In this document: one piece after another, positions 11,551 through 58,700 of the stretch
How positions within the stretch are numbered: position 1 is the first letter of the stretch
Layout of the letters: each line of letters starts with the position of its first letter
Assembly: GCA_964187785.1 (NCBI GenBank)
Contig: OZ076417.1
Location: 51,460,001-51,524,000, forward strand
DNA length: 64,000 bases
Origin: Amphiscolops sp. MND2022
Lineage: Eukaryota
Direction of reading: 5' to 3'
The notes under the pieces: model-generated
What the model was told of the DNA's origin: nothing
What the model saw: only the letters and a program-made list of their open reading frames with translations
Databases searched by the model: none
Made by a program: the position numbers and the translations under genes

Positions 11551-11555
11551 GTAGA

Positions 11556-33100: not shown

Positions 33101-35712
33101 CGGAACTTCTACATGGACGACTACTTGGAGTCAAGTCCGGCTGAGGAAGAGGCCAGCAATAAAGCAAAGCATTTAGTCAAACTACTTGCAAGAGGTGGGT
33201 TCAAGCTAACCAAGTTCGTTTCTAACGTGAGCCAGCTGCCAACCAAGCTCGAACCAGACCTCACATCGAACAAAGAAAAAGCAATACCAAGCGCTGAAGA
33301 GTGTTCCCACGTTTTGGGACTCAAATGGAATCACTCATCCGATACTCTCGTAGTGAGTCGAGGCACGAATCCCGACACCACGAAAAGATAACACAAAGGG
33401 TAACGTTGAGCTTAGTTTCAGCGGTGTGCGACCCAATTGGACTCGTAGCTCCCTACACCGTTCAAGCGAGGTTATTGTTGAAAGACATCTGGAGACTAAG
33501 AGGTCAACAATGGGACGATGACCTACCAGACGAGATTGTAACCAAGTTCATTGAATGGAGTGAAGAGTTAACAATGTTGGGCGAAATTGAAATACCAAGG
33601 AGCTACTTCGAAGGATGCGTGGAATCAATGGAGCTCCACATGTTTGGTGATAGCTCACAAGATGTTTTCAGCGCCGTCGCCTTTTTACGAGGAAAGGTAA
33701 CTGCTGCTAAACTCACCAGTACCGAACTAGCTTTCGTCTTCGGAAAAGCTAGGGTGGCACCTATGGAAGCCCTCACGATTCCCAAGCTCGAGTTACAGGC
33801 CTCCTTGCTTGCCGCACGGCTTCGAAAAGAAATTCAAAATGCCCTCACGATAAAGATTGACAAGATTTTCATGTGGACTGACAGCACGACAGTCCTGCAT
33901 TGGCTCCACTCGTTAGAAAAGCAGCCAGTCTTCGTTACAAACCGTGTAGCGGAAATCCTAGAACTCTGTACGGTAGACGAATGGAACTATGTGAAGTCAA
34001 ATGATAACCCGGCAGCTGCTGGGACACGCGGAATTTGTGCCAAGTCACTTCGCGACAGCCCTTGGCTCACCGGACCTTCCTTTCTGAAAACTTCCGACTG
34101 GCCATTTGTACCACCAACAGACGTTAAATTCAAACTGAAAGCAAAAACAACAGACCTTCATGAAACCAATTACACTACTTTCGAAACTGAGACTGCATTA
34201 AGTGCAACAGTAGCTAGCATCGCGTCAACTCTCGAGTGGCAGAAGTATAGCTCGAACGAGAAACTCCTGCGCGTTGTTGCCTACGCTTTGCGTTCACTGC
34301 CGAAAAACGAATGATACAGTTCCATTTCGGGCTCTGTCACTGATCCACAAGAACTAGAGAATGCTCAATGTAGACTTTTCTACCTCGTGCAACATGAGTC
34401 TTTTCCTACAGAGAAGACGAGTCTGTTGAAAGGATCCCCACTCAACAGTACTTCCAAAATCCTTCAATTTTCCCCCTTCATTGGGCCTCAAGGCCTCTTG
34501 CGAGCAACCGGTCGAACGAAACGACTCGAAGTGTCCATTTGTGATGCCAAACACCCAGTTCTACTCGACAGCCGACATCCTGTCACCCGGCTTTTCTTAG
34601 AACATCTTCATCAAACACACTGTCATCAAGGTGTTGACTATTTGATTGCGCTCGTGCAGCAACAGTTCGCTATTGTCAAACTTAGAACAGCCCTGTGTAC
34701 AGTTGTCTCGAAGTGTGTTACATGTCGGAAACGACGAGCTGATACAATCATTTCGATGATGGCAGATCTTCCCCGCGAAAGACTAGCTTACAAAGAACCT
34801 CCTTTCACCAATACTGGCATCGACTACTTCGGGCCTTTCTACGTTTCTGTTAAAAGGTCAACAGAGAAACGATGGGGTTTCCTTTTCACCTGTCTAACTA
34901 CTAGAGCCGTTCATTTCGAAGTTGTCCCTACGATGGACACCAGTAGTTGTGTGATGGGAATAGAGCGCTTCGCTGCCCGCAGGGGCACTCCATCTGTCTT
35001 GTGGTCTGACAATGGGACAAACTTCATCGCTAGTGAAAAAGAATTGTTACAAAATGTATCAGCTTGGAACCAACAAACCTTGTCGGAGACGCTCGTCAAA
35101 AAACGCATCCAATGGAAGTTTTATCCCCCAAGTGCCCCCCACCATGGAGGTGTCTGGGAATGTATTGTAAGGAGTTTTAAACACATCTTCTACGCGATTC
35201 TTGGAAACCGACGACTAACAGATGAGATTTTGACAACTACGTTTTGTTTAGTCGAGCAGAGTCTCAATTCCCGCCCACTCGTACCTGCAAGTTCAGACGC
35301 CACGTATTTGGATGCTCTGACACCAAATCACTTTTTGTTGGGAACGGCGGGTTCCACAATGCCATCTCACCCACGTGCCGACATCGACCACCGTAAGCGT
35401 TACGTCCGTGCTCAAGCATACTTTGATGCTATCTGGGAACGTTGGCTAAGAGAGTACGTCCCTTCTCTTAATCGTCGTTCAAAGTGGTCGACTCCACCAG
35501 AACGAGATATCATCACCGGAGACCTCGCCTGGATTGTCGAGCCGACGAGTCCACGAGGACATTACCCACTTGCACGAGTGGTTAAGTTGAACTACGGAAC
35601 TGACTCAATCGCCCGCTCCGCAGAACTGAAAACAGCAACCGGAAGCCTAGTTCGACCCATTGTCAAACTTGCACCCGTTCTTCCGTCCCCCGACTCTCCC
35701 AATACCTCTTAA
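30107..35712 (+). pseudogene. BEL/Pao gag-pol polyprotein (one frameshift near 33390, one stop near 34312)
   Basis: Gag WHEWFGQF..., three Cys/His knuckles, protease LCDSACS, RT YLPHHPV...FYMDD, RNase H ELHMFGDSS, integrase GIDYFGP...SDNGTNF...GGVWE. Confidence 0.95.
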
Positions 35713-36524
35713 TGTATAACTCTTTCCGTTTTTGTTTTCTCTTGTAATCGTGCCTAACATGAGTAAAATTGTAACATGTACATCGAAAATCTATGTAAAC
35801 CGTTTTCCGTTTAAAAAAGTTTTTGTACGGCCTCAACTTTTACATTTTTTTGCATTCACACCTTCTTAGGACCGGAGGATGTTGCAAAGCAAATATGGTT
35901 GAATTAAAACAAACAAAATCAAGTGACCGTAGCACGGTCGGTAGAGTACGGGACTCGGAATTTGAAGGTTACCGGTTGGATTCCCGAAACAGTCAAATAT
36001 TTGATACCTTTGAAAATAGTAAAATACATTTTTCAAATAATTTGCAAAAAACTTGACCTTGCTATCTCGAAGAAAAATCCTTTGTTTAATAATGTTTGTA
36101 AACAACTCGATGCTCACTTATTGATTTGATTTGATTTGATATTGTCTAAACATTTGTTTGAAATATCATTCAGTACTAATATGATCAAGATAATTGGAGT
36201 GTTCGTTTCTCTCCTTTTTTAAACGGACTGTATTTAGCCGATTAAAAAAACACAGTTCCTTCAGGCCTCGTTTTGAGTTTTTCGGCATTGTGTGACTTTT
36301 TTCAGAAAATACTTTTTTTGAAAAAAAAATAATTTTTTCCAAAAAGACCTTTTAAAAAAATTAATTTTGTTCCAAATGTTTCCAATAGTTGTTCTTTGAA
36401 TATTTTTGAGCCTTAGATATCGCGCCGACTTGAGACGATCTCGTCTTGTTTTTGCATATTTTACCAGTATAGTGAGGTTATACTTTGTATTTTGCGACAG
36501 AGCAACTATTTGAGAAACTTCAAG

Positions 36525-38390: not shown

Positions 38391-38601
38391 GATATCCGCT
38401 GCTCCCTCTGCAAGGCTATCGAAGGATAATTTATCACTTGGACAAAATACCAAAATATCATTTTTTTCACTAGAATGCATTCATTTGATAAATAACTTGT
38501 CTACCGGTAGACAAATAATTTATATTTTATATGAATACATTCTAATGAAAAATTATGGTATGTTGTGAATAGTTCAGAAAAAAATAGTTGACATCAATAG
38601 T

Positions 38602-41316
38602 TGTAGAAATTTTTGCTAGAGGGTTGGAGAGGAATCCCAATGCTCGATTCTAACAGAAAGGTTTAGTTTTTGGTGAGTAAGTTTCGTTCACGTATCGCGT
38701 ACTCTTTTCACAAGGTCTCTCCAGTGCTCAAGTTTCGACTCCAAAACACTGTGGAAAAGTTACTTGCAATTAATACTCTAATTCTGGAATTATCTGGATA
38801 ATACAAGTCGAAGATTTCCATAGTATATAAACTCTCAACCGAATAACAATCGCACAGCAGATGAATGAATTATATACAATAACTCGACAGAACTGTGCCA
38901 AAATCAAGATTCACTCAAAGATTTCCAAGTCCCGGACTTGTAACTGATTCTCTGCTCTCACTAAGCAGTTAAGTCAAATTCGAAATCGAGTAAGTTTCTT
39001 GCCCGCACACGGCTCAACTTACTCTTAACTTCGTAATCGTTCTTCTGTATCGATTCGGTCTCTTTTTCCCTCCCTAAGATATTTATTCGTCAGCCGCATT
39101 TTTGTTGTACCGATGCCGCTCTTTTATTTGCATGCTTTTAACTTCATGTAGTTCCATTCCTTTTATGGCACGGAAGCGCCCTAGTTATATTTCGGCCAGA
39201 CATACTTCGCCGCCAACGACAAATACTTCAACAAAGGTTGTACAAAGTTCACATTTTATTAATAATTCAAGTCAACCAAGATATTTCCAATATCGAGCCA
39301 ATCGTTTAACGACCTTCAGTTACATGGTTTACATGCTCTCTACGTGTGAGGGGTACTTTTCTATCATCCTAGGTGCAATACATTGCGAATGGTTCCGCCT
39401 GGCCGAAATGCATAAATTATCACTTACAGACGCTGATTTACGTGTTTTATCACAAGTTTCTCTATATGTTCCTGGGTTGCATCTGGAATGACCTTGAGGT
39501 CCATCGGTGACCTTGAAGTTATTTGCCCTCATCCAGTGTTGCTACATGCCAAGTTATATCGTCCTAGCGTCAATAGTCTTCGAGTTACACGATATGCGTA
39601 TGGTTTGTTTACTTAAGGCGGTTACCCCCGTATGGGTTACAAATACGACCTCGTTCACATTAGCAATCAACTACATTCATCATTCCGGTTCGTTTGAGAC
39701 ATTACAAGCCAAGGTCAAATGTCATTTATCGGTCGGGCCCGCGCGTCCGGTCCCGCGTGGCTTAAACAAATATTACTCCGCGCGTGGTGTATCGATCGAT
39801 GTATCTTTCTTGTATATTAGTTAGGGTTACTAGGTGAACATCCTGGGTAAGTTTCATGATCTTAGGGTCATCCGGTGGCTATTTACATAACGTTCCGAGT
39901 TTATTTACTCAGGGTCCGTACTCCTCCTACACGCGTCATAGTGTTCCGAAAACATTCTCAAACGGCTTAATATCATATGGGCTATCGATCCTATATATAA
40001 TACGACTTATTCCGTGCTTGACCGACGAGTTCATAGGGGGGTCGACCTAGGTCACTTATAGCACCTAGGTGCTAATAGCCCGGGACTGGGGGGTCTCGGC
40101 TCGGTTCGGTTTTCATAGGCGAGTACCATAACACCTCAGGTATACGTGTGCCAAATTTCAGCGGGATCGGTTCAGTAGTTCGCCGGGACGGGGGGGTGGT
40201 TTTTTTGGGATGCCCCTCCGGTTCGCATAAAATAAAACTTTGTAAAATTCGCTCGAAGCGGTCGATTCCAATTTGGCTTATTCGAACAATTTCATTGTTG
40301 ACGTCACTCACTACTTCGCTCAAACAATCAAATTTACTCTTTCTATTTTTTTGTTTGCCATCCGCATTTCTATTCTCGCACGCTATTGGATTGCAATATA
40401 GTAATAAATCAATCATGGATCTTAAGAGTTATATCGAACGAGTGGGTTATCTTCGATCCGGTGCCTTGCCTTCCCGTATGACTGCCCGCCAACGGTACAA
40501 TTTCAAGCAACCATGAAAAGGTACTCTCTCGATCACTGTCTTCGCCTCCACTTGGATTCGCGTCGGGTTCTCCGCAGAAAGGAGGTGAGGAGGGAGCTGC
40601 AGTTACTTCATGTGGAGCTCAATTACTGCAACCGCGATGAATTTATCCGTGCTGCTCGGGAGCGCTTCTCCGTTGTGGGTCTCGAGGGTCATTGCCGGGT
40701 TGTTGTCACTTCGTGTGTGGCGCGGCTTGATGACCTCATTGGCTTTCGTGTGGAAGGCCCCATGGTTCACTTTACCGAGGAGAGGAGGAAGGACCTATGT
40801 CGCAAGTTCGGCATCCCTTGGGCAAGGCACTTCCCAACTGTCGATTACCCCTGTTTGGATGTCGCCCGTTTTAAACCGGACACATTGGATACCAGATCTA
40901 CTCGTAACTGCCTCTGCTCAGCCCTGAGCGCTGTTCTTTCTGGGACGCCTGCTCACGCGGGTATACTCGAAGAAATGGTGCGTCAGGAGCGCTCCAGGCC
41001 CAACGGACACCTCGCGGTCCGATTCGACGGTGACCTTCCTGAAGGTGGGGTGGATGATCTGTTCTTCGTTACTGCCACCGACAGGAAGCTACTGGCCCGT
41101 CGGCTTGGCATAATTATTTTTGAATATTTTGTTGGGCGGGGCAATGATCCACCTTGTTGGATTACCTATTCTGGGAATCATCAAGGGCCGGAGCAGGGTG
41201 GCGTTTATCTAGCTGTATGTTGGCTCAAGAAGCGTAAATTATTTCACAGTGTCGCCGTTCTTGGGTTGAAACCGACTGGGGGCTAGTCTTGGGTAAGTTA
41301 AAATATCATTTTCACA
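38602..41316 (-). repeat. 3' LTR (2715 bp)
   Basis: Near-identical (about 98% by eye) to 50116-52772; bounded by the PPT at 41317-41325 and the TSD. Confidence 0.96.
40415..41286 (+). CDS. LTR-encoded antisense ORF, 3' LTR copy (1-nt frameshift near 40511): HHCC-like plus OTU-like
   Basis: MDLKSY...FKQ|MKRYSLD...RNCLCSALSAVLSG...WITYS...GVYL...FHSVAV; the frame is continuous across this point in the other LTR. Confidence 0.75.
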
Positions 41317-41478
41317 TTCTCCCCTACTGGACTCTTATTCTCCCGAATATGGAACAAAAAAATCCGAGACCGTTACGTAATGTCGCGAAAATTGGCTCTA
41401 GTAGAATAAAGTAAAATAAGTAAAATTTGTCTAGGTAAAGTCTTCTATCAGATCCAATCCCGATTCAAGACCCATGCG

Positions 41479-42000
41479 TTACTCGCTCTCTTCGCTGCTG
41501 CTTGCTTCCATTTGCCTTTCCTTCAGTTTAGAGAAGAATTCCGGGTCTTCGGGGTCGAGTCCGTCTGCATTTTCCCATCCTGATTGATCCTGCTCCGACG
41601 GGGCTGACATCCGTTGTTTACGCCTTGCCGGCATTGTCGTCTTAGTTCTTCGCTTTCCCCTTGTCGCCTCTCTCATATTTGGTATAACTTTGTCGGCCGC
41701 TGTCATTCTATCAATTTTCCTCTTCCGGCTCATGTCTTTCCGGGGGTTAGATGACGATTGACGTGGCATCTCGATGTCTTGGGATCTCTGGAGAGGGGCC
41801 ATGGCCTGAGTTATCTCGGTCCTTGTGGAGCGAAGGTCCCCATCGCTGCCCACCTGTCCATAAGGTGTGCGGCCGTCCCATTCCGGCCTTGTACGGTTCT
41901 CCAGGCTCGTTCTTTCCCCCGTTCGTGCCGCGGCGAGCGTTCCAAATTAGGACCCATTTGCGGTCTCTTCGTCGTTTCCAGGTGAGGTCATATAGTTCAT
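41479..42000 (-). CDS. Accessory ORF between env and the PPT, basic/NLS-rich (one in-frame TAA at codon 18)
   Basis: ACCATGA start at 42000 in frame with the 41479-41853 ORF; SRKRKIDR, GKRRTK and ARRKQR clusters; acidic tail; upstream CTAAC...TTTTCAG acceptor at 42094. Confidence 0.65.
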
Positions 42001-42216
42001 GGTGCGTGTCGACTCCAGTTTTCCAGAGTTACGTTATTATTGAATGTAAGGATTGTTGATATGCATTCACTTATTAGTTTTACTTTCGCTAGACTGAAAA
42101 TAGTTAGAAATTCTATGTTTATTTACAGGTTAACAAGTTGGCATCAAACCGGTTATCATTATGACAAAAGTTTCATACATTTTCCCTTTCGATTTAGGTA
42201 TAAAGCTACCCTTTTT

Positions 42217-44413
42217 TCAGTTTTGTCGTGGAAACGACACGTGCTGTGATTTTTTCATTATTTCATCAGTCTTCAACGAATTGGTTGGGGCGCCAGAGCT
42301 CCCACTGGGAGTATCATCTTTCACTTCCAGTCGACCGCCTTCATGTCCTACTGCGCTTTCTTTCATCTCGACCTGGTTGGGTTCATCAAGCGTACTGTCG
42401 CATGTCTGACTGCCTATCACATTCCTGTTTCCTTGAGCACGTTTGCAGGGGCATGGGGTGAGCATTACTGCGAAGAATTGTCGGGGTCCCATGTACGTCA
42501 TCAGTCCTCCACCGGTCAGAAGTAAGATCGTCAATAAGGTCAGCAGGACCGTACCGACCACTGGGTGTGCCACTGACTGCCATCGCATAGGCGCATGTCG
42601 CTTTAGGAGCGACTCCGCAAAAGGGCGTGCGATTTCCTTCAGTTCCTCTTCGGCTACTGTTCCTTCAGGGAGTTTATTCAAGTCCATCTTCATTCCCTTC
42701 AAGATGTCTTCATGGACCGCAGTTTGGAAATCTTTTGGAATATAGTAGCTTGCTTCATCTCGTTGGATCTCCTTCACCAGGTTGAAAATCGTAGTCAAGA
42801 CTGCGTTTTGGTTTATGGTTATATGCAGTCCTGAGTTGTGGTGGCATCGGTGTGGGTCAGGGTTCAGTACCAGGCTTCCGTCGGGTGTTTCAATGCGTCC
42901 GCCACACACCGGTCTGAGTAGACAACTTTTGCACCCTGCAATCCTCTCCCCTTCTATCGCATATCCACCGGTGTAGTTGTATAGCTGGTAATCGACGCTG
43001 TTTGCTGTTAACACATAAGTCGAGTCGCCCAAGTACTCGGCCAAGGGTCCCTCAGGTAAGACATGAGGACTTACTACTTCTTGACATAGCCACTGGCCGT
43101 AGGCACAATCTCAGTCGCGATGTTCCTTGACAGTGGGTGCTGAGCTCCTGCTCTGTCGCTTCCGCGAAGCTGTCCCTCCTTTCAGACTGCAAGAATTGGT
43201 TCTGCTTAAAAACATATCGGGTGGCCGTGTTCCCTTCGTCGATCGGTTGGGGTATCGGTACTGCCTTGTACACACGGTAGAGGCCACCCGCGTAGTGCAT
43301 GGGGATGTTTATCAGCACGATGATGGTGTTCTCCGTCATAACTACATTTTCTACTAATTCGAATCAGTAATACGCCGATAATTCGGCCCGAGGAATAGCT
43401 TCTTGCATTCAGTCCACTCGGATGTTGTTTAAAAGTTTCAGTAAAGCTTCTGGTGGAACCAGTGTGGCCGGGATGAAACCCTTCGTCAATGAGGCCAATG
43501 CATCATCCAAGATATACCCAAAGTTGTGAAGTCCGACTTGATAATCCAGAAATTCAGTCAACAAGGTGTCGAAAAGCTTCGTATGGTTTATAAGGACGGT
43601 CGTGAAATGTACAGACTCCTGAAATTCATTCTCCCATTTGGCACAAATTGTCGAGCCGTCCACTGCTCCCGGAGACAAGTTATCTTTGAGCTTCGTGAAT
43701 AAGTCCCTGATCTGTTGGAAATTGGCGTTAGAGTCTTTAGCGAGAATTTTCAGCCTCCCCTGGGTTCGATTCAGGGCATGTCCCAAGAGGTGAATTCTCT
43801 CTCCCGATTCCAGCGTCACAGTCCTTGCCATGTCATCTAAATCGCTCAGTCGATGAGCTAACTCATCGTACTTTCTGGAGTCGCCACACATGAAGGTGAA
43901 CGGACAGAACCCGTCGATTAGTTTGGGGAGTAGGGTTATCGCGGCCGCTGTTGCTGCCGCCCCGGCGACTACCACGGTCAGTGCTCCCCGCTTGGTTCTT
44001 CCTTTGTGTAGTTCCCTATGCACAATGAACGTTTGAGCCCGTTCGCGCATCTCTGTCAAATCATCCTTCACTTCCAGGAAGACTTTCTCAACGTTCTTCA
44101 GCCCAATATATGGTATATTGAATAATGCGTGCGTCAAGCTTGCGTTACCACAGAAATCTGTTCCTTTCGCTCGGCCCCAGGCTTTCCGAAAATTATACTG
44201 AAACTCTTGAAATGCCAGGTCCAAGTGGGTGACGTTCAAATTGGGTAGTGGTAGGAAAGGTATCGACACCCAAGCTGCCTCGAGTGAGCTAGCTACAATA
44301 ACTGGAATCTCGGGTACAAAAACTACTTAAGCAGTGTTGTTATATTCCAAAGTTTTTGCTGTTGGGAAACCCCAGCAAACCAGCAAAATTAGCGAAAGGG
44401 TTTTTAATATCAT
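42217..44413 (-). pseudogene. env: Envelope / class I fusion protein (disrupted)
   Basis: Signal peptide MILKTLSLILLVCWGFPTA, furin site RTKR followed by hydrophobic GALTVVVAGAAATAAAITLL, heptad-like region, Cys-rich region, TM VVGTVLLTLLTILLL; stops near 44329 and 43409, frameshift near 43050. Confidence 0.88.
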
Positions 44414-45151
44414 CCTGTTTTCGAATTCAATAGTTTAACAAGTGATGCCAACTTATGAACCTTAAGGGTTACACTATTTATTCATAATGTCTCGCCCATA
44501 CCAGACGGTCCATCATTCTTTCAATCAAAGGTGAGTCTACCCATAATTCCAGACGACTAAGGTATGTTTACTTTCGGTATTGACAATTGCATCATTCCAT
44601 GTACGTTTTTCTATCTACCTTGTGTGCTCACCTTTGAAGTCAGTGAATAGGTCATTTCACCCAATGGTATTAGAAAAACAAACACCATGGGTGCGTGGGG
44701 GTTTAATCATAGTGTGGGTCAAAAAAAAACAATAGAATTCTAGGAAACTCAATGGGAAGAATGCATAGCCCAGTGAAAATTTCAACAAGGGGGGTTTAAA
44801 GAGTTAGTTTTTAGTTTGTGATCCTCTTACCGGTTCAGTCATCAATTCCGAACCTTTGCGTGGGTTTACGGCTGCGTTGCAGGTAGCGCTGTTGGTCTTC
44901 AGCTTGCTGGGTTGGGGGGTCATCTAGGGTTTCGGGATTCACCGCGTTGTCTGCGACGTCTTCCACGGGTTCGATGAGGGTGTGGGTTTCTCCTTCTGAC
45001 GGTTGGGTTGACCAATCTGCTCGCATGGGGGTTGTGTGGCTGCATCCCGTAACACTAACTGGTTCATCTGGTGTCTCCTTACGCCCAGTGTCGTTTTCTT
45101 CTTCAAACATTGACCCCAGCTGGTAGTCTTGGTCGAGCCAACGGTCTTGCT

Positions 45152-48100
45152 TCATTCTGTCGTACTTCCGGACGGTCTGCCCAGCGATACGACGGGCGTC
45201 AGCCTCTGTCTTAGCAGCACTAACTGCCGGCTTGGAGGGTCTTCGTGGTCTAGTTCGTCCACAACATCCTCCTCATCCACCTCGTCGAAGAAATTCTTTG
45301 ATCGATACGGGTTCGGTCGGCAGGGTATCTCGTCAACTGGTTCGCTCACAAAGGGTTTTAACATATTGAAATGGACGATCTTCCATTTGTCTTCTTTCCC
45401 CTTTTTCGCGGTCTTGTAGTTGACTTCTGACGTCTGTTCCAAGATCTCCCATGGCCCCTCCCACGGTAGGTAGAATTTTCTCGACTTGGCTTTGTGGGGG
45501 GACATCAGCCAGACTTTCTCCCCTTCTGCATAGTTCCGCCCGAAGACCTTCTTGTGGTAGCGGTCTTTTTGACGTTCCTGATTAACTCCCAGGTGACTTC
45601 TAGCTGCGCTATGGGCCTCGTGGAACTTGCGATCCAGGTCGTCCACGAACTCGGTACGGTCCATCAGCTCGTCGTGTGGCCGGGGATAAAACAGGTCGAT
45701 CGGGTATTGACACTCTTGGCCATAAACCAGCGCAAATGGGGTAGCTCTTGTTGTCCGGTGAACAGTTGTGTTGTAGACGAAATTCAAGTATGGGAGGACC
45801 TCGTTCCAGACTTGTGGGTCATCACTACAGTATTTTGAGACCATGTCTGCAATCACTCGGTTAAAACGCTCCACTTGGCCATTCCCCTGCGGGTGGTAGG
45901 GGGACGTCCTCGTTTTGTCTATTTTCAATAACTGACACATTTCTTGTATCACCCGACTTCCGAAGTTCGTCCCTTGGTCCGTATGCAGACAGTCGGGGAC
46001 TCCAAAGTGCAGAATCCAGCCCGTAACTATAGCTTCCACTACATCCTGTGCTTCGGTCTTCACCAAGGGCACTGTGACTACAAACTTCGTGAAACAGTCG
46101 GTCATCGCTAGGATGTACTTGGCCCCCGTCTTTGTTGCTTTAGTCACCGGGCCCAAGATGTCCGCGGCTACGGTGTGGAAACGAATTCCCACTTTTCGAG
46201 GCTGTAATTCAGCGACGTTTTTCTTCCCAGCCACGGACCGCGCGGCGCAGGGTCTTTTTTGAGATCCGTTTTTCTACGTCCTTTCTCATCGATGGCCACC
46301 AAAACCTCTGTCGAATTTAGAGGAGAGTCTTCTCAAGCGCGAAGTGTCCACCACTCAACGGGGAAGAATGCAGTTGTTCCAGTATCTCCTTTCGGGACTC
46401 TAATGGGACAATTAACTGCACTTGATCTTGTCCACTCTCTGCACTGGCCCAATGACGATATAGCAACCCATTTTTGACAAAGAGCTGCCGCCAGAGGTTC
46501 CAGAACGCTAGAGCTTCTTCTCCTGAAGACACTGCTTCTTTCTGGGTAGCCACCCTGTTGCCAAGTTCATTCTGGTTCGGTTTTGTCTTCGCATCAGCCC
46601 ACTCCAGTACTGCTCGAATTGCTGGGTCCGCCCATTGTGCTTTCAGGATGTCATCAGGCGAGGATTTCCATGTTATTTGGATCTCGTCTGGGTTGGGGAC
46701 CTCAGTTTCGGTTGCAACCCTGTCGGAAACGCTCAGTTCTTTTAGTGCCAGTTCCATCGTCAGAGGTTCCGGACAGGAACCCATTGGCTCCTCTTTCTCT
46801 CCAGGTAGCCATTCCGGTTCGTCGGAACTCATTCGAGACAGCCCGTCTGCATTTCCATGTTTGTCGCCGCTCCGATGGATCACTTTGAATTTGTATACCT
46901 GGAGCGTCTGTAGCATCCGAAACGTCTGGCCGTCTGCATTCTGCCGAAATAGCCATCGCAAGCTGGCGTGGTCGGTGCGGACCAAGAATTCCGTGCCCCA
47001 TATGTACGGTCTGAACCACTTCAGGGCCTGCACTACCGCTAAGGCTTCTCGCTTCGTGGTTGAGTACATGCTTTCGGTCTTTGATAGCACCCTGCTTGCA
47101 AACACGAGTGGTCTTTCGTCTCCATCGATCACGTTGGACAGCACTGCACCCAAACTCACGTTACTGGCATCCGTGTCCACCACAAACAGGCTTTTGAAGT
47201 CGGGGTACTGAAGCATGGGTGCAGTAGTGAGCTCCAATTTCAGTCGTTCAAAAGCTACTTGGCAAACTTCATTCCACTCAAAACAATCATTCTTCTTCGT
47301 GACTGCGTGTAGAGGTCTAGCTATTTCTGCAAAGTTTCGAATAAATCGGCGATAGTAACTGCAGAAGCCCACAAATGACCTCACGTCTGTCACGTTTTTC
47401 GGCACCGGCCACTCTTTCACTGCTTCAACCTTCGCTGGGTCGGGAGATGTGCCGTCAGCTTGAATGGTGTGCCCCAGGTAGTCTACTTGGAAAAACTTGC
47501 ACTTCTTGGGCTTCAGGCGAAGGTTTGCTTTCCTAAGCGTTTCGAAGGTTATCTTCAGATTCTGGGTGTGTTGTTCTATATCGCCGCTATACAAGAGGAC
47601 GTCGTCCAGAAAAATCAGTACTCCCTTGTAGATATACTGGACGAACAAGTTGTTCATCAGCCTCTGGAAAGTACCGGGGGCGTTGGTCAGTCCAAAAGGC
47701 ATCCTCACATATTCATAGAGTCCACCATCTGGCGTGACGAAGGCAGTTTTGTGTCGGTCTTCAGGTGCTACTGGCACTTGCCAGTACCCGCTAGCTAAGT
47801 CCAGGGTGGAAAAGAGCTTTGCACCGTTCAATGCGTCGAAGGTCTGTTCGATCTTCGGAATAGGGAAGGCGTCTTTTACAGTAATTTCGTTGAGCCTTTT
47901 ATAAACCACGCAGAACCTCCAACTGCCGTCTTTCTTCTTGGCTAACACGATTGGGGCGCTGTACGGGCTGTTGGAGTGCTGTATGACCCCTCGTTTTAGC
48001 ATGTCCTCTACTTCCTGTTGCACAATCGGGAGCTTCGCGGGAGATATCCGGTGTGGGGGTATTTTGATGGGGTCACTGTCTCCCGTTTCGATGTGGTGTT

Positions 48101-49031
48101 CTGTTACGTCTGTGCAACCCAATTCGTCATCGTTGAGTGCAAAGACGTCTCTGTATTCGGTCACTAAAGCTTTCAGGACTTCTCGTTCCGGTCCTGTGAC
48201 GTTCTCGGCGGAGAGTGCCAAGATCTTCTCCACGTCTTGCTCCAGCGTCGGGAAGCTTGTAGCTGAGGTTACCTCACTACGGGGCTCTTGGACCACTCTA
48301 ACACTATCGGATTCCTGTGTTTCCGTGACACCTAATTGTTGGTTCGGTGGTCCAACCTCTCCAACTGAAACTTTAGATTCCTGTCGAAAGTCGTCTTCGT
48401 TGCTTTTGTCTGCATTAGAAATCCCCGCCGGCTCCTCTGGTTCCGTTGCCCTGAGCTCTCGGATACGACGAATCTGCTCGACACGGAAACCCACGATGGA
48501 ACCTTCTCCTGGTGCAGACCAAAATTGCTTGGTGTTGAAATCCAAGTTTGATTTGTGGTGATTCATAAATGCGAGGCCAAGTATGATAGTTGGATTCACA
48601 TCGTGCATTACCAAAAAGTTTACTTCTTCGTCTATTGCTCCAACGAGTATTCTAACTCGGGCTCGTCCGACGACGGCCATTTGCCTCCCATCTGCTGTCT
48701 CCAGGCGTCCGTCATACTTCTCCAGTTTCGGGAAACGATCCAGTTCATAGGTGTTTAAGTTTATTAAGTTTACTGATGCTCCAGTGTCTAGCAGTGCGTC
48801 AACTTCTCTTCCAGCCACCTTGACTTTTGTGACAGCGCTGAGTGTCCCACCTTCCAGAGTCGAGCTTGAGTTTTCTGGGTCTGGATCGTTAGAACTGAGG
48901 GAACGTGCTTTTTCTGCCAAAGCCTCGGCCTTCGCTTTGACTAGGTAGGGGATATGACGAAAATTTACAGGTTTGAATTCGGCCGGGACAAAACCTTCCT
49001 TCACTGGTCTCCCGGCCCCTCGGAGTTTAAA
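45152..49031 (-). pseudogene. pol: Pol (protease, RT, RNase H, integrase), broken in the integrase zinc-finger region near 46300
   Basis: LLDTGAS; MPFGL...IFLDD; TDAS...REALAV...TDH; HTVAADILGP...TDQGTNF...VERFN. Confidence 0.95.
48988..49031 (-). promoter_or_regulatory. Candidate -1 ribosomal frameshift signal at the gag-pol overlap
   Basis: T TTA AAC heptamer in the gag frame, 7-nt spacer, then a GGCCGGGA...TCCCGGCC stem; pol is in the -1 frame. Confidence 0.75.
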
Positions 49032-50021
49032 GCCTCCGACTTCTTTGGGCATACTCGCGCAAAGTGGCCCTCCTCACCACATTCATAACAAGCTAGGGTC
49101 TGACGCGATGACTGTTGTTTGTTCCCGCTACCACCCTGGTTGTTGAAGTTGTTTCCGTAGCGAGTAGCACCATCATTTGGGTTGAAGAACTTCTTTTCAC
49201 TGGTGGGGGTCACTGCTGCTTGTGGGTACGGCATCGGAAGCACAGAAGACATGAACTTCGACATCATGTTAGTCAAGTTATTCATTGCTTGACTGACTTC
49301 ATTCATCTGCTGTTTCATCTCACTCATCTCGGGGTTGCTGCTGCTGTTCGTTGTTGCCTCTTGAGTCACCCTGAGTGCTGCCACTCGCTTCGTGGACCTA
49401 TTCCGTATGGATTTCGAGATAGTCTCCAGGTCAATAGTCCTGTTGATGGTGTCGGTGAATGACCTAGTGTCTTCTCTCAACAAGACCTCGAGCAGATCGG
49501 GGTCCGACAACCCTTCGATGAATCGCTCTCGAAACTGCTCATCCCGTTGTTCCGCCTCCAGAGTGCGAAACACTTGCATCCCCACGCTTCGAACTCGGCA
49601 AGCAAAGTTCCTCAGGCTCTCGCCTTCCTTCTGTACTAAAGCTTTAAACTCACTCCTGCCCATCCTGTCGTTCCTCAGAACACCAAGAGCTCTGTCCAGA
49701 TGCTCAAAGGGGTTTTCAAGGGTCGGGGCCGGCTCGCCTTTGGTGTCTTGTTTCAGCGCTGCAGGTGCGGCGTGAAACTCATCCAACGCGTGGCCGTTGA
49801 GGCAAACTGGTAGAGCGTTGATTGCTTGAATCTGGGTCCATCTGTTCGCTTCTGCTACGGCAGTAAAGTGGGATTTCCATTGTACCCAATTCGGATAAGC
49901 ATTCGAGGGGAATCTATCCGGCCTGAGAGCACCATTGTTGAAAATCCGATTCTGCTGGTCGTTCAGCACCTGCCCCTGCAATGGTCACCTCCAGTAGATC
50001 TCGTCTCTCGTCTTGATTCAT
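49001..50021 (-). CDS. gag: Gag with a CCHC knuckle (probable 1-nt frameshift shortly after the ATG at 50021)
   Basis: WVQWKSHF...AEANRW, FRERFIEGL, CYECGEEGHFARVC. Confidence 0.9.
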
Positions 50022-50115
50022 CGTGTTGTCAGGGGATAACAGCTAAGTCCCAGTAAAACAATTCCAAAATAACAGCGATACAGAACTACGAAAATTGCCC
50101 AACCAGGAGCGCCAC

Positions 50116-52772
50116 TGTAGAAATTTTTGCTAGAGGGTTGGAGAGGAATCCCAATGCTCGATTCTAACAGAAAGGTTCAGTTTTTGGTGAGTAAGTTTCG
50201 TTCACGTATCGCGTACTCTTTTCACAAGGTCTCTCCAGTGCTCAAGTTTCGACTCCAAAACACTGTGGAAAAGTTACTTGCAATTAATACTCTAATTCTG
50301 GAATTATCTGGATAATACAAGTCGAAGATTTCCACAGTATATAAACTCTCAATCGAATAACAATCGCACATCAGATGAATGAATTATATACAATAACTCG
50401 ACAGAACTGTGCCAAAATCAAGATTCACTCAAAGATTTCCAAGTCCCGGACTTGTAACTGATTCTCTGCTCTCACTAAGCAGTTAAGTCAAATTCGATAT
50501 CGAGTAAGTTTCTTGCCCGCACACGGTCTCTTTTTCCCTCCCTAAGATATTTATTCGTCAGCCGCATTTTTAATGCACCGATGCCGCTCTTTTATTTGCA
50601 TGCTTTTAACTTCATGTAGTTCCATTCCTTTTGTGGCACGGCAGCGCCCTAGTTATATTTCGGCCAAACATACTTCGCCGCCAACGACAAATACTTCAAC
50701 AAAGGTTGTACAAAATTCACATTTTAATAATAATTCAAGTCAACCAAGATATTTCCAATATCGAGCCAATCGTTTAATGACCTTCAGTTACATGGTTTAC
50801 ATGCTCTCTACGTGTGAGGGGTACTTTTCTATCATCCTAGGTGCAATACATTGCGAATGGTTCCGCCTGGCCGAAATGCATAAATTATCACTTACAGACG
50901 CTGATTTACGTGTTTTATCACAAGTTTCTCTATATGTTCCTGGGTTGCATCTGGAATGACCTTGAGGTCCATCGGTGACCTTGAAGTTATTTGCCCTCAT
51001 CCAGTGTTGCTACATGCCAAGTTATATCGTCCTAGCGTCAATAGTCTTCGAGTTACACGATATGCGTATGGTTTGTTTACTTAAGGCGGTTACCCCCGTA
51101 TGGGTTACAAATACGACCTCGTTCACATTAGCAATCAACTACATTCATCATTCCGGTTCGTTTGAGACATTACAAGCCAAGGTCAAATGTCATTTATCGG
51201 TCGGGCCCGCGCGTCCGGTCCCGCGTGCCTTAAACAAATATTACTCCGCGCGTGGTGTATCGATCGATATATCTTTCTTGTATATTAGTTAGGGTTACTA
51301 GGTGAACATCCTGGGTAAGTTTCATGATCTTAGAGTCATCCGGTGGCTATTTACATAACGTTCCGAGTTTATTTACTCAGGGTCAGTACTCCTCCTACAC
51401 GCGTCATAGTGTTCCGAAAACATTCTCAAACGGCTTAATATCATATGGGCTATCGATCCTTTATATAATACGACTTATTCCGTGCTTGACCGACGAGTTC
51501 ATAGGGGGGTCGACCTAGGTCACTTATAGCACCTAGGTGCTAATAGCCCGGGACTGGGGGGTCTCGGCTCGGTTCCGTTTTCATAGGTGAGTACCATAAC
51601 ACCTCAGGTATACGTGTGCCAAATTTCAGCGGGATCGGTTCAGTAGTTCGCCGGGACGGGGGGTGGTTTTTTTTGGGATGCCCCTCCCGTTCGCATAAAA
51701 TAAAACTTAGTAAAATTCGCTCGAAGCGGTCGATTCCAATTTGGCTTATTCGAACAATTTCATTGTTGACGTCACTCACTACTTCGCTCAAACAATCAAA
51801 TTTACTCTTTCTCTTTTTTTTGTTTGCCATCCGCATTTCTATTCTCGCACGCTATTGCATTGCAATATAGTAATAAATCAATCATGGATCTTAAGAGTTA
51901 TATCGAACGAGTGGGTTATCTTCGATCCGGTGCCTTGCCTTCCCGTATGACTGCCCGCCAACGGTACAATTTCAAGCAATCCATGAAAAGGTACTCTCTC
52001 GATCACTGTCTTCGCCTCCACTTGGATTCGCGTCGGGTTCTCCACAAAGAGGAGGTGAGGAGGGAGCTGCAGTCACTTCATGTGGAGCTCAATCACTGCA
52101 ACCGCGATGAATTTATCCGTGCTGCTCGGGAGCGCTTCTCCGTTGTGGGTCTCGAGAGTCATTGCCGGGTTGTCGTCACTTCGTGTGTGGCGCGGCTTGA
52201 TGACCTCATTGGCTTTCGTGTGGAAGGCCCCATGGTTCACTATACCGAGGAGAGAAGGAAGGACCTATGTCGCAAGTTCGGCATCCTATGGGCAAGGCAC
52301 TTCCCAACTGTCGATTACCCCTGTTTGGATGTCGCCCGTTTTAAACCGGACACATTGGATACCAGATCTACTCGTAACTGCCTCTGCTCAGCCCTGAGCG
52401 CTGTTCTTTCTGGGACGCCTGCTCACGCGGGTATACTCGAAAAAATGGTGCGTCAGGAGCGCTCCAGGCCCAACGGACACCTCGCGTGACCTTCCTGAAG
52501 GTGGGGTGGATGATCTGTTCTTCGTTACTGCCACCGACACGAAGCTACTGGCCCGTCGGCTTGGCATAAATATCTTTGAATATTTTGTTGGGCGGGGCAA
52601 TGATCCACCTTGTTGGATTACCTATTCTGGGAATCATCAAGGGCCGGAGCAGGGTGGCGTTTATCTAGCTGTACGTTGGCTCAAGAAGCGTAAATTATTT
52701 CACAGTGTCGCCGTTCTTGGGTTGAAACCGATTGGGGGCTAGTCTTGGGTAAGTTAAAATATCATTTTCACA
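50116..52772 (-). repeat. 5' LTR (2657 bp)
   Basis: Copy of 38602-41316 with 46-nt and 14-nt deletions; adjacent to the PBS at about 50097-50114. Confidence 0.96.
51884..52742 (+). CDS. LTR-encoded antisense ORF, 5' LTR copy (14-nt deletion near 52486)
   Basis: Intact N-terminus (FKQSMKRY; LHVELNHCNRD); frameshifted after GHLA and resumes as DDLFFVTATD. Confidence 0.75.
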
Positions 52773-53358
52773 ATAGTGAAAACAATTTAAATGAAGATGT
52801 TTCGAATCGTTTTGAGATAATTAGCGAAAAAATTTCTAACCAAAAACTAATGAAATTGAGCTAAAGTGATAATTATTGTTCAAACGTGTATCCAGGATCT
52901 GTAGAATTTGAATTACTTGCATTTTTTCACTAAATAGAGATATAAGTACAGTTAGTATATTTTTAAGTGAATTATCCTTTGAACAGCCCTGCGTTTCCTT
53001 TGAACTGCGTTTCGAAATTGAGTTTTTAAGTTTGTCAAAAATTTTCTGTGATGTCTAAGATTGCTCTGAGCGCTTGAAAACAGAAACCATAAGCTGCCAG
53101 TTCAAAATTTTGCGTAATTTTTTGGCAAAATTCTCAAACAGAATTCAAGTAGTCATTTGAAATATAGTTTTGTACTAACCGAGTCGTTAAATTTGTTATT
53201 ACAAATCAAGAACACAGAAAACTGGTGTGACGTCATTAAAAAATTAGACACACTTCATAAAAGATTCACTTTTGAACTTTCAGAGAGTTTCAAAGATTCG
53301 AAGTATCATTACGAAGAGTATCATTGTTACAAGGTTTGAAAATTTTAATGCAAAGAAG

Positions 53359-55700
53359 AACAAGCCGGGACCGGCTCAAGTCGGCGCCATTTCTAAGGCT
53401 CAAAAATACCAAAAGGACATCAAAGTGTCAAAGTATTCTGTTCTACAGCAACCCAGGCGGGGACGCTTTGAGATTTTTCATCCATTCTGTCGCAAATTAT
53501 CAAAAAAAATGAAGGGGACCCTTTGGTGATTTTTTTGAAAAGTCTTACAATGCCAAAAAAAATTGAAAGGCGGTACCCTTTGGGATTTTTCAACATGCAT
53601 TCTGTCGCAAAACTCCAGAAAATTGAAGGGACCCTTCGGGGAAATTTTTTTCCAAAAGCGTCTCCCAATGTCGAAAAAAAAACTGAAGGGGGAGCCCTTT
53701 GGTCTCGTCCGGTATTCTATGTTACGCGGGAAACCTTTTTGGCTCAGTTCCCTGGGCCAACAGGGGCAATTTAGAAATTTGTAGAACTTTTGGTAGAACT
53801 ATTTTAGTCACTTCAAGTGTATCGAAAAAAAAGAACAAGCCGGGAACAGCATAAGTAGGCGCCATATCTAAGGCTCAAAAATAGCAAAACGACATGAAAG
53901 ACTCAAAAAACTCAAAGTATCAAACTCACAAAAATAGTATCAAACTCACGAAAAACCCAAACGACCGAACTGGCGCGCTAGGTGTACGCTAGCGCAGGCC
54001 CCTGGCGCGCTAAAAGGGGGACCCTTTCGCTTTTTCAGCATCCATTGTTGCAAAACATCAAAATATTGGTGAAAAAAGAATTTTCCGAAAAAAAAGTCTC
54101 ACAATGACGGAAAAAAAGAAAGGGGAACCCTTTGGGATTTTTCAACATCCATTCTTTCGCAAAACATCATAAAGTTGAGGAGGGACCCTTTGGGGAAGTT
54201 TTTTTTCGAAAACAAAGTCTCGCAATGCCGAAAAAAACTGAAAAAGGGGACCTTTTAGTCTCTCCCGGTACGGTATGTTACGCAGAAAAACAGGAAAAAC
54301 CTTTTTGGTTCAGTTCGCTAGACCAAATTGTGCAATTTGGTGCAATAATATTTTGTAGAACTTTTGTAGAACTATTTTGGTCAGTTCGTGTGGATTGAAA
54401 AAAAAAGAAAAGCCACTATAATAGTCGCGTTTCACTTCATGAAGCGCCGATTAAAAAGTCGGATCATTATTTAATATAAGACAGTCTCCCCTCCTTTGCC
54501 TAATGATTGATATTTTTCGACAATTATCCCAGTATTCAGTCATGTTGAGTCAAATATGATTCAGAAACTGACAGATACTTTATGACATCAAGCGCCAATA
54601 ATGATGCATTCAAAAGACAAGACAATTCGAAAACAAGAACCAGCGATTTTCCCATACAATGACAGGTTCACTTACCAATAATGCATTTTCGAATTGCGCT
54701 CATTGAAACCAGTTTCTTGGCATTATCGCTAGATGACAATCGCGTTTGAAAACTATTTCTAATTGGTCCCATTGTTGAGTTGAGCGAGTTCCTGAGTATA
54801 CCTTACTGAATGATTGAAAATCTTGTTCTAGGTAACAACAGTTTTGAAGTGCTCTACCAATATGCTGATGTGCTACGCTGAAAACGCGCTTAGCTTTGCT
54901 GATCAATCGAAAGATGAAGATCCCAAATGTGAATTGAAAAACGAAGGAAGCTTCTGATGGCGTTTTTATCAATTTGTTTTTTGCCTAATGTTTGGCATTT
55001 TCATGTTGTATTCATGTTTCTACAAACTTACTATACCAAAGTTTAAACTGTTTTGAACGGTAGTATCATAGTTAAAATATAACAAGCCGGGACCGGCCCA
55101 AATTGGCGCCATATCCAAGGCTCAAAAATAGCAAAAGGACTTCCAAGTGTCAATTTACAGTACTCGAAAATCGAAAAAGCAAAAAATATGAACAGAGTGG
55201 CGCGCCGGGGCCCGCTAGGGCGAGCCCCTGGCGCGCTAAAAGGGGGACACTTCCGAATTTGTCAACATTTTTGTCGCAGTTGAAAGGGGCCCCTTTGGAG
55301 AAAAAACAAATTTTCGAAAAAAAAGTCTCACAATGCCGAAAAACTGAGAGGGGGGACCCTTTGGGATTTTTAAACACCCAATCTGTTGTAAAATATCAAA
55401 GAACTTGAAAGGGGGGGAACCTTTTGAAGAAAAAAATTTTTGAGAAAAGTCTCACAATGCCGAAAAACTGAAAGGGACCCTTTGAGGTTTTTCAACATCC
55501 ATTCTGTCGCAAAACATGAAAAAATTGAAAACAAAATTATTTTCGAGAAAAAATCTCACAATGCCGAAAAAAACTGAAAGGGGGGACCCTTTGGGATTTT
55601 TCAACATCCATTCTGTCGCAAAACATCAAAAAAATGCAGGGAACACTTTGGGAAAAAAATTCCGAAAAAAATGTCTCGCAGTGCCGAAAAAAATCTTGAA
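53359..55700 (+). repeat. Three copies of a dispersed repeat with tandem subunits of about 110-130 bp (starts 53359, 53834, 55081)
   Basis: Shared head AACAAGCCGGGA...GGCGCCAT; recurring unit AAAAACTGAAAGGGGGACCCTTTGGGATTTTTCAACATCCATTCTGTCGCAAAA. Confidence 0.85.
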
Positions 55701-55709
55701 ATAGACCTG

Positions 55710-58700
55710 AACTCTTCACCCAAGTAATTAATGAATGTAATTCTATTTTAAAGCTAATTACCTCTGAAGAAACTTCACCTAATATATCCTGTGACAAGCT
55801 TCTCAGATCTATCCTGTTACTGTCATTTTTTATTAATGTAAAAGATTATAACCCACCCTAGTTTGAGAGAGTATATCTACTCGGAGAAAATTTGAATCTA
55901 ATCTGAAATACGGTCTTCCTCTTCAGAAGAACTAACTGAGATCTCAGAGTTATTAGACTTAGAACTAGCTAGCTAAACTGACTTGAAATAAGACGACTTT
56001 GTTGTTAAAATCTTGGACTTCTTATGTCTGCAATAAAACATCTAAAAGAAACAACACTCAACATTTTTAACAGCTCAATTGGTGAGACCAAGAAAATTCT
56101 TCTTTCTCTCCCTCTAATTACAAAATTTTACAACTTTTGCACACCTCTTCTCGACTTTCTTATCAGATACCTTTTTGTTCGACACACAGTTTCTCCACCT
56201 CTCAATATTGTCTACCGTTATTGATTTCTAACGTTGCAACCAATTTCTATAAGAAATTGATTCGTATTGCTATGGTTCTGACTACGTCCTTCAACGAAAT
56301 TCCTGTGAGTAACTTTTACGTTCCAACCACCCCTGAGTGAATTCGTGTTGGCATTCTCTCATTTTTCCGTTCCAACCGCAGACGTGCGATACGTGTTGGC
56401 CTTTCTACAGTGCTATCCAGTGATTCCTGCTAGTAAAATACATTGGTTCTAGTCGCTTGGATCAACTTTAAAGTTGGCACATTTATAAAACATACCTACT
56501 CTTAATCACATTATTTTAGTACATCTCATTTCCATCCTCTATATAGTACATCTAACATATAAAACTCTTTCAAAACCAGTTAACGGATCCAATTATATAA
56601 CAAGTAATTGAACACCAACTTTCATAACTCAATTGAACCCCAACTTAAATGACTTCAAATAATTGAACATAAACTTATATAACATTCAAAATTTCACACA
56701 CTTGTACACAATATCTTACACAATTTTTCAACATAATCTTGACAGATTATCATTATACATGTCGCCTTCAGTAGATGATGTAGTTGAAATCATTGTCTGC
56801 TTTTGGTTTTCTTTTGCACTCCTTGCTGGTCTTGCACTTTTCAATGATAAATTTCTAATACATTTTGTACCAAAATTTTGAAATATAACTTTTCTATGTT
56901 AACAAGTATAATACTGCCTCTTTTTGGACTACTTAGTATTTATCATACCTTTTGTCCTCCTACACTATATACAGAATCCACCTCTTCTTTCCTTTTGTAC
57001 AGTACTTACAATACTCCTACAAGTTATATTTGTAGATCAAGTCTTATTATATTTTGTAGATCAAATTCTGTAGATCAAACAATATAACTTTCAAATTAAT
57101 ACAAAACATCTCCTGCTACAGTACATTTATCTTTTATGGCAATCCTACTATACTGACTAATCCTTGCAACATATAATGCTCTCTCCTCCATTTGTTTTAT
57201 CTACAGAAAAAAGACAAAACCGATCTCTTACACAAGATGTAACACCTTTTTTAAACAACATCATCTTTCAGTTCACAAACCCACTTCCATTTGAAACAGA
57301 ACCCTATACGATACATACTATTCCATTGGCAAGAGATCATTGTGACTCTTATCTATATTACATTCGATATAAAACACTTGAAATACCACAATCGCAAAAC
57401 CCCTTTCAAGGTACTTTCAACCCAGTTAAAGGAATAAGTACTGGAACATACTATAGAACAATCCATCCACAAAACATCATACTCTATACAAGATGTTTTC
57501 CTTACTTAGATGCAAAAACTTATTGAATTTAATGAAAACCAAGATACACCACTCTATCTTCCTTCTCACTTAGAAGACCTGAAACACAAATCTGAATATT
57601 TCGAGGTCCCAGACCTTGAAACAAGAATTCAGAGACACGATAACCCTCATTAATGGTTACAACAAGATATTTTACAAGTAAAAAACTTCCAAAGAGATTC
57701 TTTACCAATATTACCCTCACTGACGACACTATTCCTCAAGTCAAAGTTTTCACTCTATTTTTATTAAAGTTTTTCAGATTTAGCTATCAACTGCTCTGGG
57801 ATCAACAAGCTTACATTCATTTTCCTCAGATACTAACACAAACTGAACTCTTACCATACATCATTAAAAATGAACATAGACATTTACAATACAGGGATCC
57901 TACCTCATTCAACACCACTTATTTTGAACAGATCATCTGGATCACAACTTTATAACTGATTATTTTGAAACATCAGATAACAGACCTTATATTACATCAA
58001 ACCTTTCCCCTGAAAAAACCCCAGAAGAACAAACCTCTAATGTTGTACCTCAATATATTAGACAACATTCCGTACAATCAGAACAAGAAGCCTTTGCTAA
58101 CTTTTTCCAAAATCAAGACCCTCGCCAATTAAACCCACTATATCCACAATTACCACAAGCTTCTGATAAACAACAGTTAACTGCTTCTGAAACTGCTACA
58201 AAACACAATGCATCAGAACTCTCTGAAGAAACTGTACAGACTGTACAAAATACACAAAGTCTTACATTATTTAATGATTCAAATCTTATACAAGTTCCTA
58301 CCCACAATATCACACAAGACGAAACTGATAACCAAAACCAAGACAACACTTTAAGTACAACTCAAGACAACACCTCTATTTTATCTACATCTCAAACTAT
58401 TGTCACACAACCATCTCAAACACAAAGATCCCCTCGTCAAAATTATGACCCACCTTCTATTCCACCTCAAATCTCAACTCAAATTCACACTCCTAATTCT
58501 CCTCAACAAGGCTCTTCTAATACACAACACACTAATACAGTCCATTTTCAAACACCAACTCCACCATCACCTCCTGAAATACAAACTTCAACTTATACTT
58601 CAGCTCAAAGTAATCCAGTACAAAATGTACAAACTAGTTTAAATATTAACACTATTCATTCAAACACACCTTTCAGTTACACAACTTCTAGACACCTTTC

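Follow-up and report, generated by a model that had tools for sequence, protein, structure and literature searches.

The 64,000-nucleotide stretch analyzed here (the window; contig OZ076417.1, positions 51,460,001 to 51,524,000, in the 1.07-Gb genome of Amphiscolops sp. MND2022, assembly GCA_964187785.1) contains on its minus strand a 14,171-bp env-bearing Gypsy element (38602-52772) whose long terminal repeats (LTRs) each carry a gene oriented opposite to gag, pol and env. This LTR gene is under purifying selection, and it belongs to a cassette that has been exchanged between gag-pol-env cores. Its product is predicted to consist of the N-terminal domain (NTD) of an integrase fused to an OTU deubiquitinase domain, and a homologue was found in BEL/Pao elements of the same genome. 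The antisense orientation of the gene, the predicted domain fusion, the exchange and loss of the cassette and the BEL/Pao homologue go beyond a preliminary description of the element made from the sequence alone.

The antisense LTR gene and its predicted product

No part of the LTR gene extends beyond the LTR; it falls within the first 1 kb, at the U3 end, and in the window it stops ~30 nt from the LTR edge. Searching the genome with this gene returned 131 matches, with identity as low as 32%; many form LTR pairs with a ~12-kb separation and open frames of 286-293 codons, and frames stayed open at constant length even at 33-38% identity. The ratio of nonsynonymous to synonymous divergence (dN/dS) was 0.09-0.23 for pairs 60-90% identical with measurable dS and 0.20-0.42 in more distant pairs near saturation, many pairs being saturated, while for pairs 98-99% identical it is uninformative, exceeding 1 from very few changes. 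Because 131 genome matches with open frames are accompanied by dN/dS well below 1, the gene is not a chance open reading frame (ORF). The preliminary description had counted as genes both this ORF and one downstream of env (ORF4, treated below), and both proved to be real.

The placement of two motifs hints at antisense transcription of the gene. The palindrome TGACGTCA, which we take to be a cyclic AMP response element (CRE), occurs 114-195 nt upstream of the gene, in full in 9 of 12 Gypsy copies, partially in one and not at all in two (a count made without a control). An antisense AATAAA lies 28-109 nt from the LTR edge in all 12 elements with the cores A and B described below, although these copies are not independent and the count has no shuffle control. 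Four loci (L066-L069) contain an open or nearly open LTR gene and no gag or pol ORF >220 codons in the 10 kb fetched, and are possibly solo LTRs still able to express the gene. As seen at L070 and L071, many genome copies have only the first ~47 LTR-gene codons, in a 53-codon frame with repeats ~6 kb apart, and may be another LTR type or a deletion derivative.

The structural model of the LTR protein (predicted local distance difference test score, pLDDT, 79.8) comprises two domains. By VIA-align, residues 2-105 matched the N-terminal parts of integrases from Ty3 (Z 9.2), foamy virus (Z 8.9) and murine leukemia virus (Z 6.7), and residues 148-286 matched OTUD3 (Z 10.9, root-mean-square deviation 3.7, 121 aligned), OTUD1 (Z 10.2) and also nairovirus OTUs. 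The top ten rows returned by Foldseek were all OTU domains (best E 1.2e-3). Pfam Integrase_H2C2 was recognized, below cut-off, in 12 of 20 members of the LTR-protein family. A sequence search against solved structures gave no match for the LTR protein, and for P0133, one of its distant two-domain relatives (the others being P0029, P0048, P0069, P0101 and P0105), it gave OTU matches at E 0.27 only. The ESM Atlas had no usable match for the Gypsy or the BEL form, and none of 369 pattern matches from a metagenome scan with the LTR-protein alignment was confirmed.

A profile search of 1.84 billion proteins yielded 202 matches at E 0.001. The 35 that were scanned included stand-alone proteins of 292-318 amino acids (aa) with H2C2 and canonical OTU motifs, and a 668-aa protein (P0108) with H2C2, rve and OTU domains, which is the Ginger1 architecture as given in the available text of PMC2836005. 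In the alignment with P0108, the LTR protein corresponds to P0108 minus the entire integrase core and C-terminal domain; the YPYY motif and H2C2 finger of the Ginger1 N terminus and its C-terminal OTU domain are present, and the DDE core and GPY/F motif are absent. Cys166 and His280 align with the catalytic Cys and His of canonical OTU relatives, and across 13 distant sequences the Cys is invariant and the His is kept in 12. From these models and alignments the LTR protein is predicted to be an integrase NTD fused to an OTU deubiquitinase domain, and the gene probably derives from a transposase of the Ginger1 type through loss of the catalytic core. A genome search with P0108 returned retroelement integrases (best 66 of 26,377 candidates scored). 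Two fish proteins (P0063 and P0075) contain the integrase N-terminal module in triplicate together with THAP and a deacylase domain, and an OTU domain near the start of a 2,244-codon frame (L077:1-2085, minus strand) possibly belongs to a Helitron-type protein.

The BEL/Pao homologue and the swappable cassette

A Pfam OTU search of the genome gave nine matches, four of which represented one unexpected family. Searching with this OTU family of BEL elements gave 106 matches, and at all 11 loci fetched the OTU gene adjoins a BEL-type gag-pol on the opposite strand. At 10 of these, flanking repeats of 246-312 bp (95-100% identical) lie ~7 kb apart, with the gene between pol and the 3′ LTR. The hosts were assigned to BEL/Pao by the Pfam domains DUF1759, Peptidase_A17 and DUF5641, and at least four BEL/Pao families carry the antisense gene, 41-56% identical to one another with synonymous sites saturated. 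BEL forms score above the Pfam OTU cut-off and keep a Cys-His-Asp (C-H-D) triad. The Gypsy and BEL forms are only 15-19% identical and were aligned by HHalign over 259 columns (probability 97.5, E 7e-12), an identity low enough to suggest that both have long been retained. In a midpoint-rooted tree of 18 rows they formed separate supported branches, each with outside relatives, a topology compatible with one capture or two. In both superfamilies the start of the gene is near that part of the 3′ LTR which is constant and bears the promoter, and its reading direction is toward the end of pol or env. A BEL-type element in the window itself (29096-36263; LTRs of 391 bp, 95% identical, with a 5-bp target-site duplication) has no OTU gene.

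The Gypsy elements of the genome have at least three cores: A (that of the window element), B and family C. Between cores A and B, gag and pol diverge by ~10% (dS near 1.1) and env by 30%; family C (18.1-18.2 kb, with LTRs of 3.48 kb) is 48-49% identical to them in pol and 30% in env. Read on the element strand, the first ~1 kb of the LTR is variable and the other ~1.7 kb is common to the LTR types. This variable part forms, with ORF4 and the polypurine tract, a cassette of roughly 1.7 kb that behaves as one block.

ORF4 is encoded in the sense direction between env and the polypurine tract, and its hydrophilic product of 168-177 aa has basic clusters and an invariant DGRTPYGQ block. It had 26 genome matches and no Pfam family, and its dN/dS was 0.16-0.44 in 16 of 18 measurable pairs, the other two (0.52 and 0.72) being likely recombinant; 3 of 21 pairs were saturated. 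We would guess that it is a nuclear RNA- or DNA-binding regulator. A membrane-anchored small fusogen was ruled out, since ORF4 has no transmembrane or hydrophobic segment. Its identity with the post-env ORF of family C was also rejected, as the sequences are unrelated; the latter (L057:4785-5342, plus strand) encodes 186 aa with no Pfam match.

Exchange of the cassette between gag-pol-env cores is shown by several comparisons. The LTR proteins of two copies are 35% identical although their gag sequences match at 98%. Conversely, closely related LTR proteins occur on different cores, and where gag stands at dS 1.16 the LTR proteins are at dS 0.34. In a sliding comparison with the window element, core-A copies were 93-98% identical over gag-pol-env, and identity dropped to 46-53% exactly over the cassette in 6 of the 11 copies compared; in one core-B copy it rose over the cassette to 83-95%. 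Both LTRs of the recombinant elements are at least 99% identical, which indicates passage through reverse transcription, and we infer that template switching during that process was the route of exchange. The cassette has also been lost: 9 of 16 core-B units have a short LTR (about 1,956 bp) in which about 250 bp replace the block, and 7 of 16 have the long LTR (of the nine short-LTR units, one is 3′-truncated and another matches the LTR only in part). Since this gene-free variant is widespread, the cassette is dispensable in cis. A further 9.9-kb unit (L064-L065; G000:C2:87367777-87377696) combines the cassette with a different 354-aa gag, a partial pol and no env, and is likely non-autonomous.

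Proposed role of the LTR protein and alternatives

The function that we favor, with a shade better than an even chance of being correct, is that antisense transcription of the LTR yields a soluble, trans-acting protein that is targeted by its NTD and removes ubiquitin or SUMO. The element would replicate by tRNA-Asn priming, −1 frameshifting and env-mediated cell-to-cell spread. A divergent LTR promoter would drive the antisense transcript, which would be ended by an AATAAA supplied only in the 3′ LTR context. Acting in trans, the soluble protein may reach integration complexes or chromatin by means of its integrase N-terminal module; there its OTU domain may strip off ubiquitin or SUMO, and so protect integrase from degradation or the provirus from silencing. 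Reverse transcription with template switching would swap the cassette and also copy it into both LTRs.

Several observations weigh against this proposal. The substrate and the docking partner were deduced from domain identity alone, and Foldseek gave no match to the LTR protein at E 0.001. Gypsy forms lack the Asp preceding the catalytic Cys and the Asp or Asn after the His; the third triad position, two residues after the His, is hydrophobic in these forms and Asp in 5 of 5 BEL forms. One copy has Asn in place of the His, and the LTR-protein type of the window lacks the last zinc-finger Cys. With these residues missing, the Gypsy proteins may be inactive. Short-LTR elements, which lack the gene, have the antisense AATAAA as well, and this motif was found within 110 nt in none of three family-C copies and ≤200 nt from the stop in one of five BEL copies. 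Among core-B units, those free of the gene are no fewer than those with the long LTR.

The absence of the third triad residue and of the Asp before the Cys would be explained if the LTR protein were a pseudo-enzyme or binding scaffold regulating LTR transcription, as proposed for HBZ of human T-cell leukemia virus type 1 (HTLV-1) and the plant Retand antisense proteins, with the NTD binding DNA or chromatin and the OTU fold binding ubiquitin uncut. The THAP-associated triplicate modules of the fish host proteins also favor this alternative, as does the antisense 3′ placement of the HBZ and Retand TRP28 ORFs (available text of PMC11963269). We nevertheless consider it unlikely, although worth serious attention, given the conservation of Cys and His across the distant sequences and the retention of C-H-D by the BEL forms. 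An improbable alternative is a copy-number or competition factor, in which the free integrase NTD poisons the integration complexes of its own element or of rivals, limiting host harm or excluding superinfection. An integrase domain without its catalytic core, the spread of the gene-free variant to 9 of 16 core-B units, and divergent types that coexist and swap as specificity factors would are in agreement with such a factor, but it leaves the conservation of the OTU domain and its Cys and His unexplained, and a self-limiting gene under purifying selection in two superfamilies would be hard to sustain. That the cassette is a passenger, a Ginger-like DNA transposon remnant inserted and copied along with no role in the cycle, would suit an architecture equal to a Ginger1 transposase minus its core and a cassette dispensable in cis, but is very improbable in light of the low dN/dS, the constant-length frames in divergent copies, the identical orientation and 3′ placement of the gene in hosts of both superfamilies and the long retention of both divergent forms.

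For the trans-acting deubiquitinase, a broader proposal can be made tentatively, as possible but short of probable: two LTR-retrotransposon superfamilies may share a mobile, antisense, LTR-driven deubiquitinase that is aimed by its NTD, exchanged with the 3′ cassette and directed against ubiquitin- or SUMO-based host control, with cassette-free cheaters using the gene in trans.

The gag-pol-env core, known relatives and significance

The boundary features reported in the preliminary description were reproduced. The pentanucleotide ATAGT flanks the window element on both sides, and its LTRs, which start with TG and end with CA on the element strand, align with 2,610 matches, 45 mismatches (98.3%) and 4 indels. 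The primer-binding site matches the 3′ end of a host tRNA-Asn located in a tandem tRNA array in the same genome, and a purine tract precedes the 3′ LTR (Table 1). A tandem array at L053 contains tRNA-Asn genes and genes called as tRNA-Ser(GCT) at ~190-bp spacing. Pfam detected a zinc knuckle, protease, reverse transcriptase (RT), RNase H and integrase in the Gypsy order, with the F-type env downstream, as expected of an env-bearing Gypsy element; this pol order, the TG...CA LTRs, the tRNA primer site, the polypurine tract and the short target-site duplication are those of Ty3/gypsy elements. The five coding regions of the supposedly complete unit are present, but the unit is not intact, as gag, pol, env, ORF4 and both LTR-gene copies are interrupted by frameshifts or stops in the window copy. 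Open frames for all five genes were found in other copies of the same genome, and the true lengths were taken from these natural copies, unchanged: gag 339-342, pol about 1,410-1,420, env 745-753, ORF4 168-177 and the LTR gene 279-291 aa. The constant LTR part has three short ORFs (39132-39491, 39546-39824 and 40072-40416), and the two scanned against Pfam had no match.

Table 1 Features of the window element (window positions) and loci of BEL/Pao elements with the antisense gene
Feature	Position	Strand	Remark
Target-site duplication ATAGT, left	38597-38601		5 bp
3′ LTR	38602-41316	-	2,715 bp
TATA-like box and AATAAA, element strand	39900-39999	-	putative sense start and R region
TGACGTCA palindrome upstream of LTR gene	40299-40306; 51767-51774		putative promoter element
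Antisense LTR gene, 3′ LTR copy	40415-41286	+	predicted integrase NTD and OTU-fold domain; frameshift near start
Polypurine tract, before 3′ LTR	41317-41327	-	
AATAAA, antisense strand	41405-41410	+	89 nt beyond LTR edge; putative poly(A) signal of LTR gene read from 3′ LTR
Post-env ORF4	41479-42000	-	one internal stop
env, class I F-type fusion protein	42217-44413	-	stops and frameshift
pol (protease-RT-RNase H-integrase)	44835-49052	-	two frame breaks, integrase part
gag, CCHC zinc knuckle	49001-50021	-	frame break near start
TTTAAAC slippery heptamer, then predicted hairpin	49025-49031	-	putative −1 gag-pol frameshift site
Primer-binding site, tRNA-Asn	50098-50114	-	one base past LTR
5′ LTR	50116-52772	-	2,657 bp
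Antisense LTR gene, 5′ LTR copy	51884-52742	+	frameshift in OTU part
Target-site duplication ATAGT, right	52773-52777		5 bp
7-kb BEL/Pao elements with antisense integrase-NTD/OTU gene	G000:C2:11130402-11137357, C13:16205479-16212427, C3:92748660-92755719, C13:37626455-37633322 (L117-L156)		intact C-H-D triad

The nearest named matches to the RT-RNase H region are pols of fish, frogs, molluscs and a sea cucumber, 43-53% identical; a related pol (P0196, 69%) is accompanied by a GDSL esterase domain. Of 14 elements with a located knuckle, 12 have the TTTAAAC heptamer and a predicted hairpin at the end of gag, among them the distant family C; −1 frameshifting is therefore the likely source of pol. 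Across copies, LTR pairs are mostly 98.8-99.9% identical, which points to recent activity; internal regions of core B are 99.3-99.5% identical, with several copies having open frames.

In Env, a signal peptide is present, as is a furin site with a hydrophobic (fusion) peptide after it; cores A and B also show a clear transmembrane peak. All Foldseek rows listed for its low-confidence model (pLDDT 58.7) were paramyxovirus or pneumovirus F proteins (best E 1e-6). The Pfam Baculo_F match was weak (E 0.0012), a sequence search against solved structures gave no match, and of 8,000 candidates scored, only nine proved to be relatives of env. Env is thus predicted to fold like F proteins and not as a retroviral SU/TM envelope. 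Of the likeness to complex retroviruses proposed earlier, the layout stands, with accessory genes after env and in U3 that are both under selection (their transcripts being predicted), but the element is not a retrovirus. Judged by the features compared (a separate F-type env and near-identical open copies), the core appears to fit the 'ancient errantiviruses' (PMC13524379).

Elsewhere in the window, 1926-14911 contains an old repeat pair ~11.5 kb apart, ~80% identical, with a decayed integrase fragment between, and 23477-27068 has decayed protease-RT-integrase remnants of another Gypsy-like element. A dispersed repeat family with ~120-bp subunits occupies 53352-55712 and 56000-64000 and is inverted at 19900-20340 and 36270-36450, and the window ends in a strongly C-skewed region.

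Coding sequence within or overlapping U3, duplicated in both LTRs, occurs in Retroviridae as mouse mammary tumor virus sag, human immunodeficiency virus nef and foamy virus bel, all read in the sense direction. The LTR gene resembles these in its U3 location and differs in being antisense, in encoding an unrelated protein and in lying outside Retroviridae. Comparisons with other known elements refer to the available portions of the papers cited. The 'ancient errantiviruses' of Chary and Hayashi share the gag-pol-env order, the F-type env (furin site, fusion peptide and transmembrane helix), near-identical copies and the tRNA primer site, whereas the words 'OTU', 'antisense' and 'accessory' do not occur in the main text, nor was a post-env ORF, LTR gene or swappable cassette found there, and its supplements may list the family of the window element (PMC13524379). 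Ginger1 DNA transposons (Bao et al.) share the N-terminal YPYY motif and H2C2 finger and the C-terminal OTU domain, but have the DDE core and GPY/F in one transposase between terminal inverted repeats, while the LTR gene lacks both and is antisense in LTR retrotransposons (PMC2836005). HTLV-1 HBZ and the antisense ORFs of plant Retand, Grande and RIRE2 are precedents for a conserved gene read backward near the 3′ end of LTR elements, and the BEL homologue has the same position between pol and 3′ LTR; unlike those ORFs, which are bZIP-like or TRP28 and lie outside the LTR, the Gypsy gene sits within the LTR, occurs in both copies of it and has a predicted protease fold (PMC11963269). The giant Gypsy elements Burro and Ogre, together with Helentrons, offer long LTRs, extra ORFs and ubiquitin-related domains in transposons, but the LTRs of Burro and Ogre are described as noncoding and OTU is mentioned for Helentrons only (PMC6431247). 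Rotifer ORF3 capture likewise places extra ORFs in unrelated retroelements, although those ORFs encode GDSL, DEDDy or env-like products and OTU is not mentioned in the text available (PMC5408684).

Because env-bearing Gypsy elements are already described, outside insects as well (PMC13524379), and Ogre LTRs reach 1.9-6.5 kb (PMC6431247), neither env nor the LTR length singled out in the preliminary description is novel, and the novelty lies in the accessory cassette. The preliminary description named no known equivalent, and we found no OTU gene in an LTR retrotransposon in the open-access literature, including the available text of PMC2836005, PMC6431247, PMC5408684 and PMC6338049, with Repbase and Dfam outside the search. 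With precedents for each of long LTRs, extra ORFs and antisense 3′ ORFs, what appears new is an integrase-NTD/OTU gene inside the LTR that moves between cores with its cassette and also occurs in BEL/Pao.

OTU and Ulp1 domains are found time and again on transposases, namely those of Ginger1, Helitrons and Mutator (PMC2836005), and their role there is regarded as an open question. Here the OTU module comes as a small stand-alone gene, with natural variants that have or lack it and a BEL version with an intact triad, so its substrate and role are testable with one 290-aa protein. If the broader proposal is true, this gene would be to retrotransposons what OTU proteases are to viruses, and it would be the first gene for an enzyme within an LTR. 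Solo LTRs would carry the gene across the host genome. On this evidence, env-bearing Gypsy elements of invertebrates can evolve accessory genes of a retrovirus-like kind, one of them antisense and present in both LTRs, and such accessory cargo moves between cores and is common to different superfamilies.

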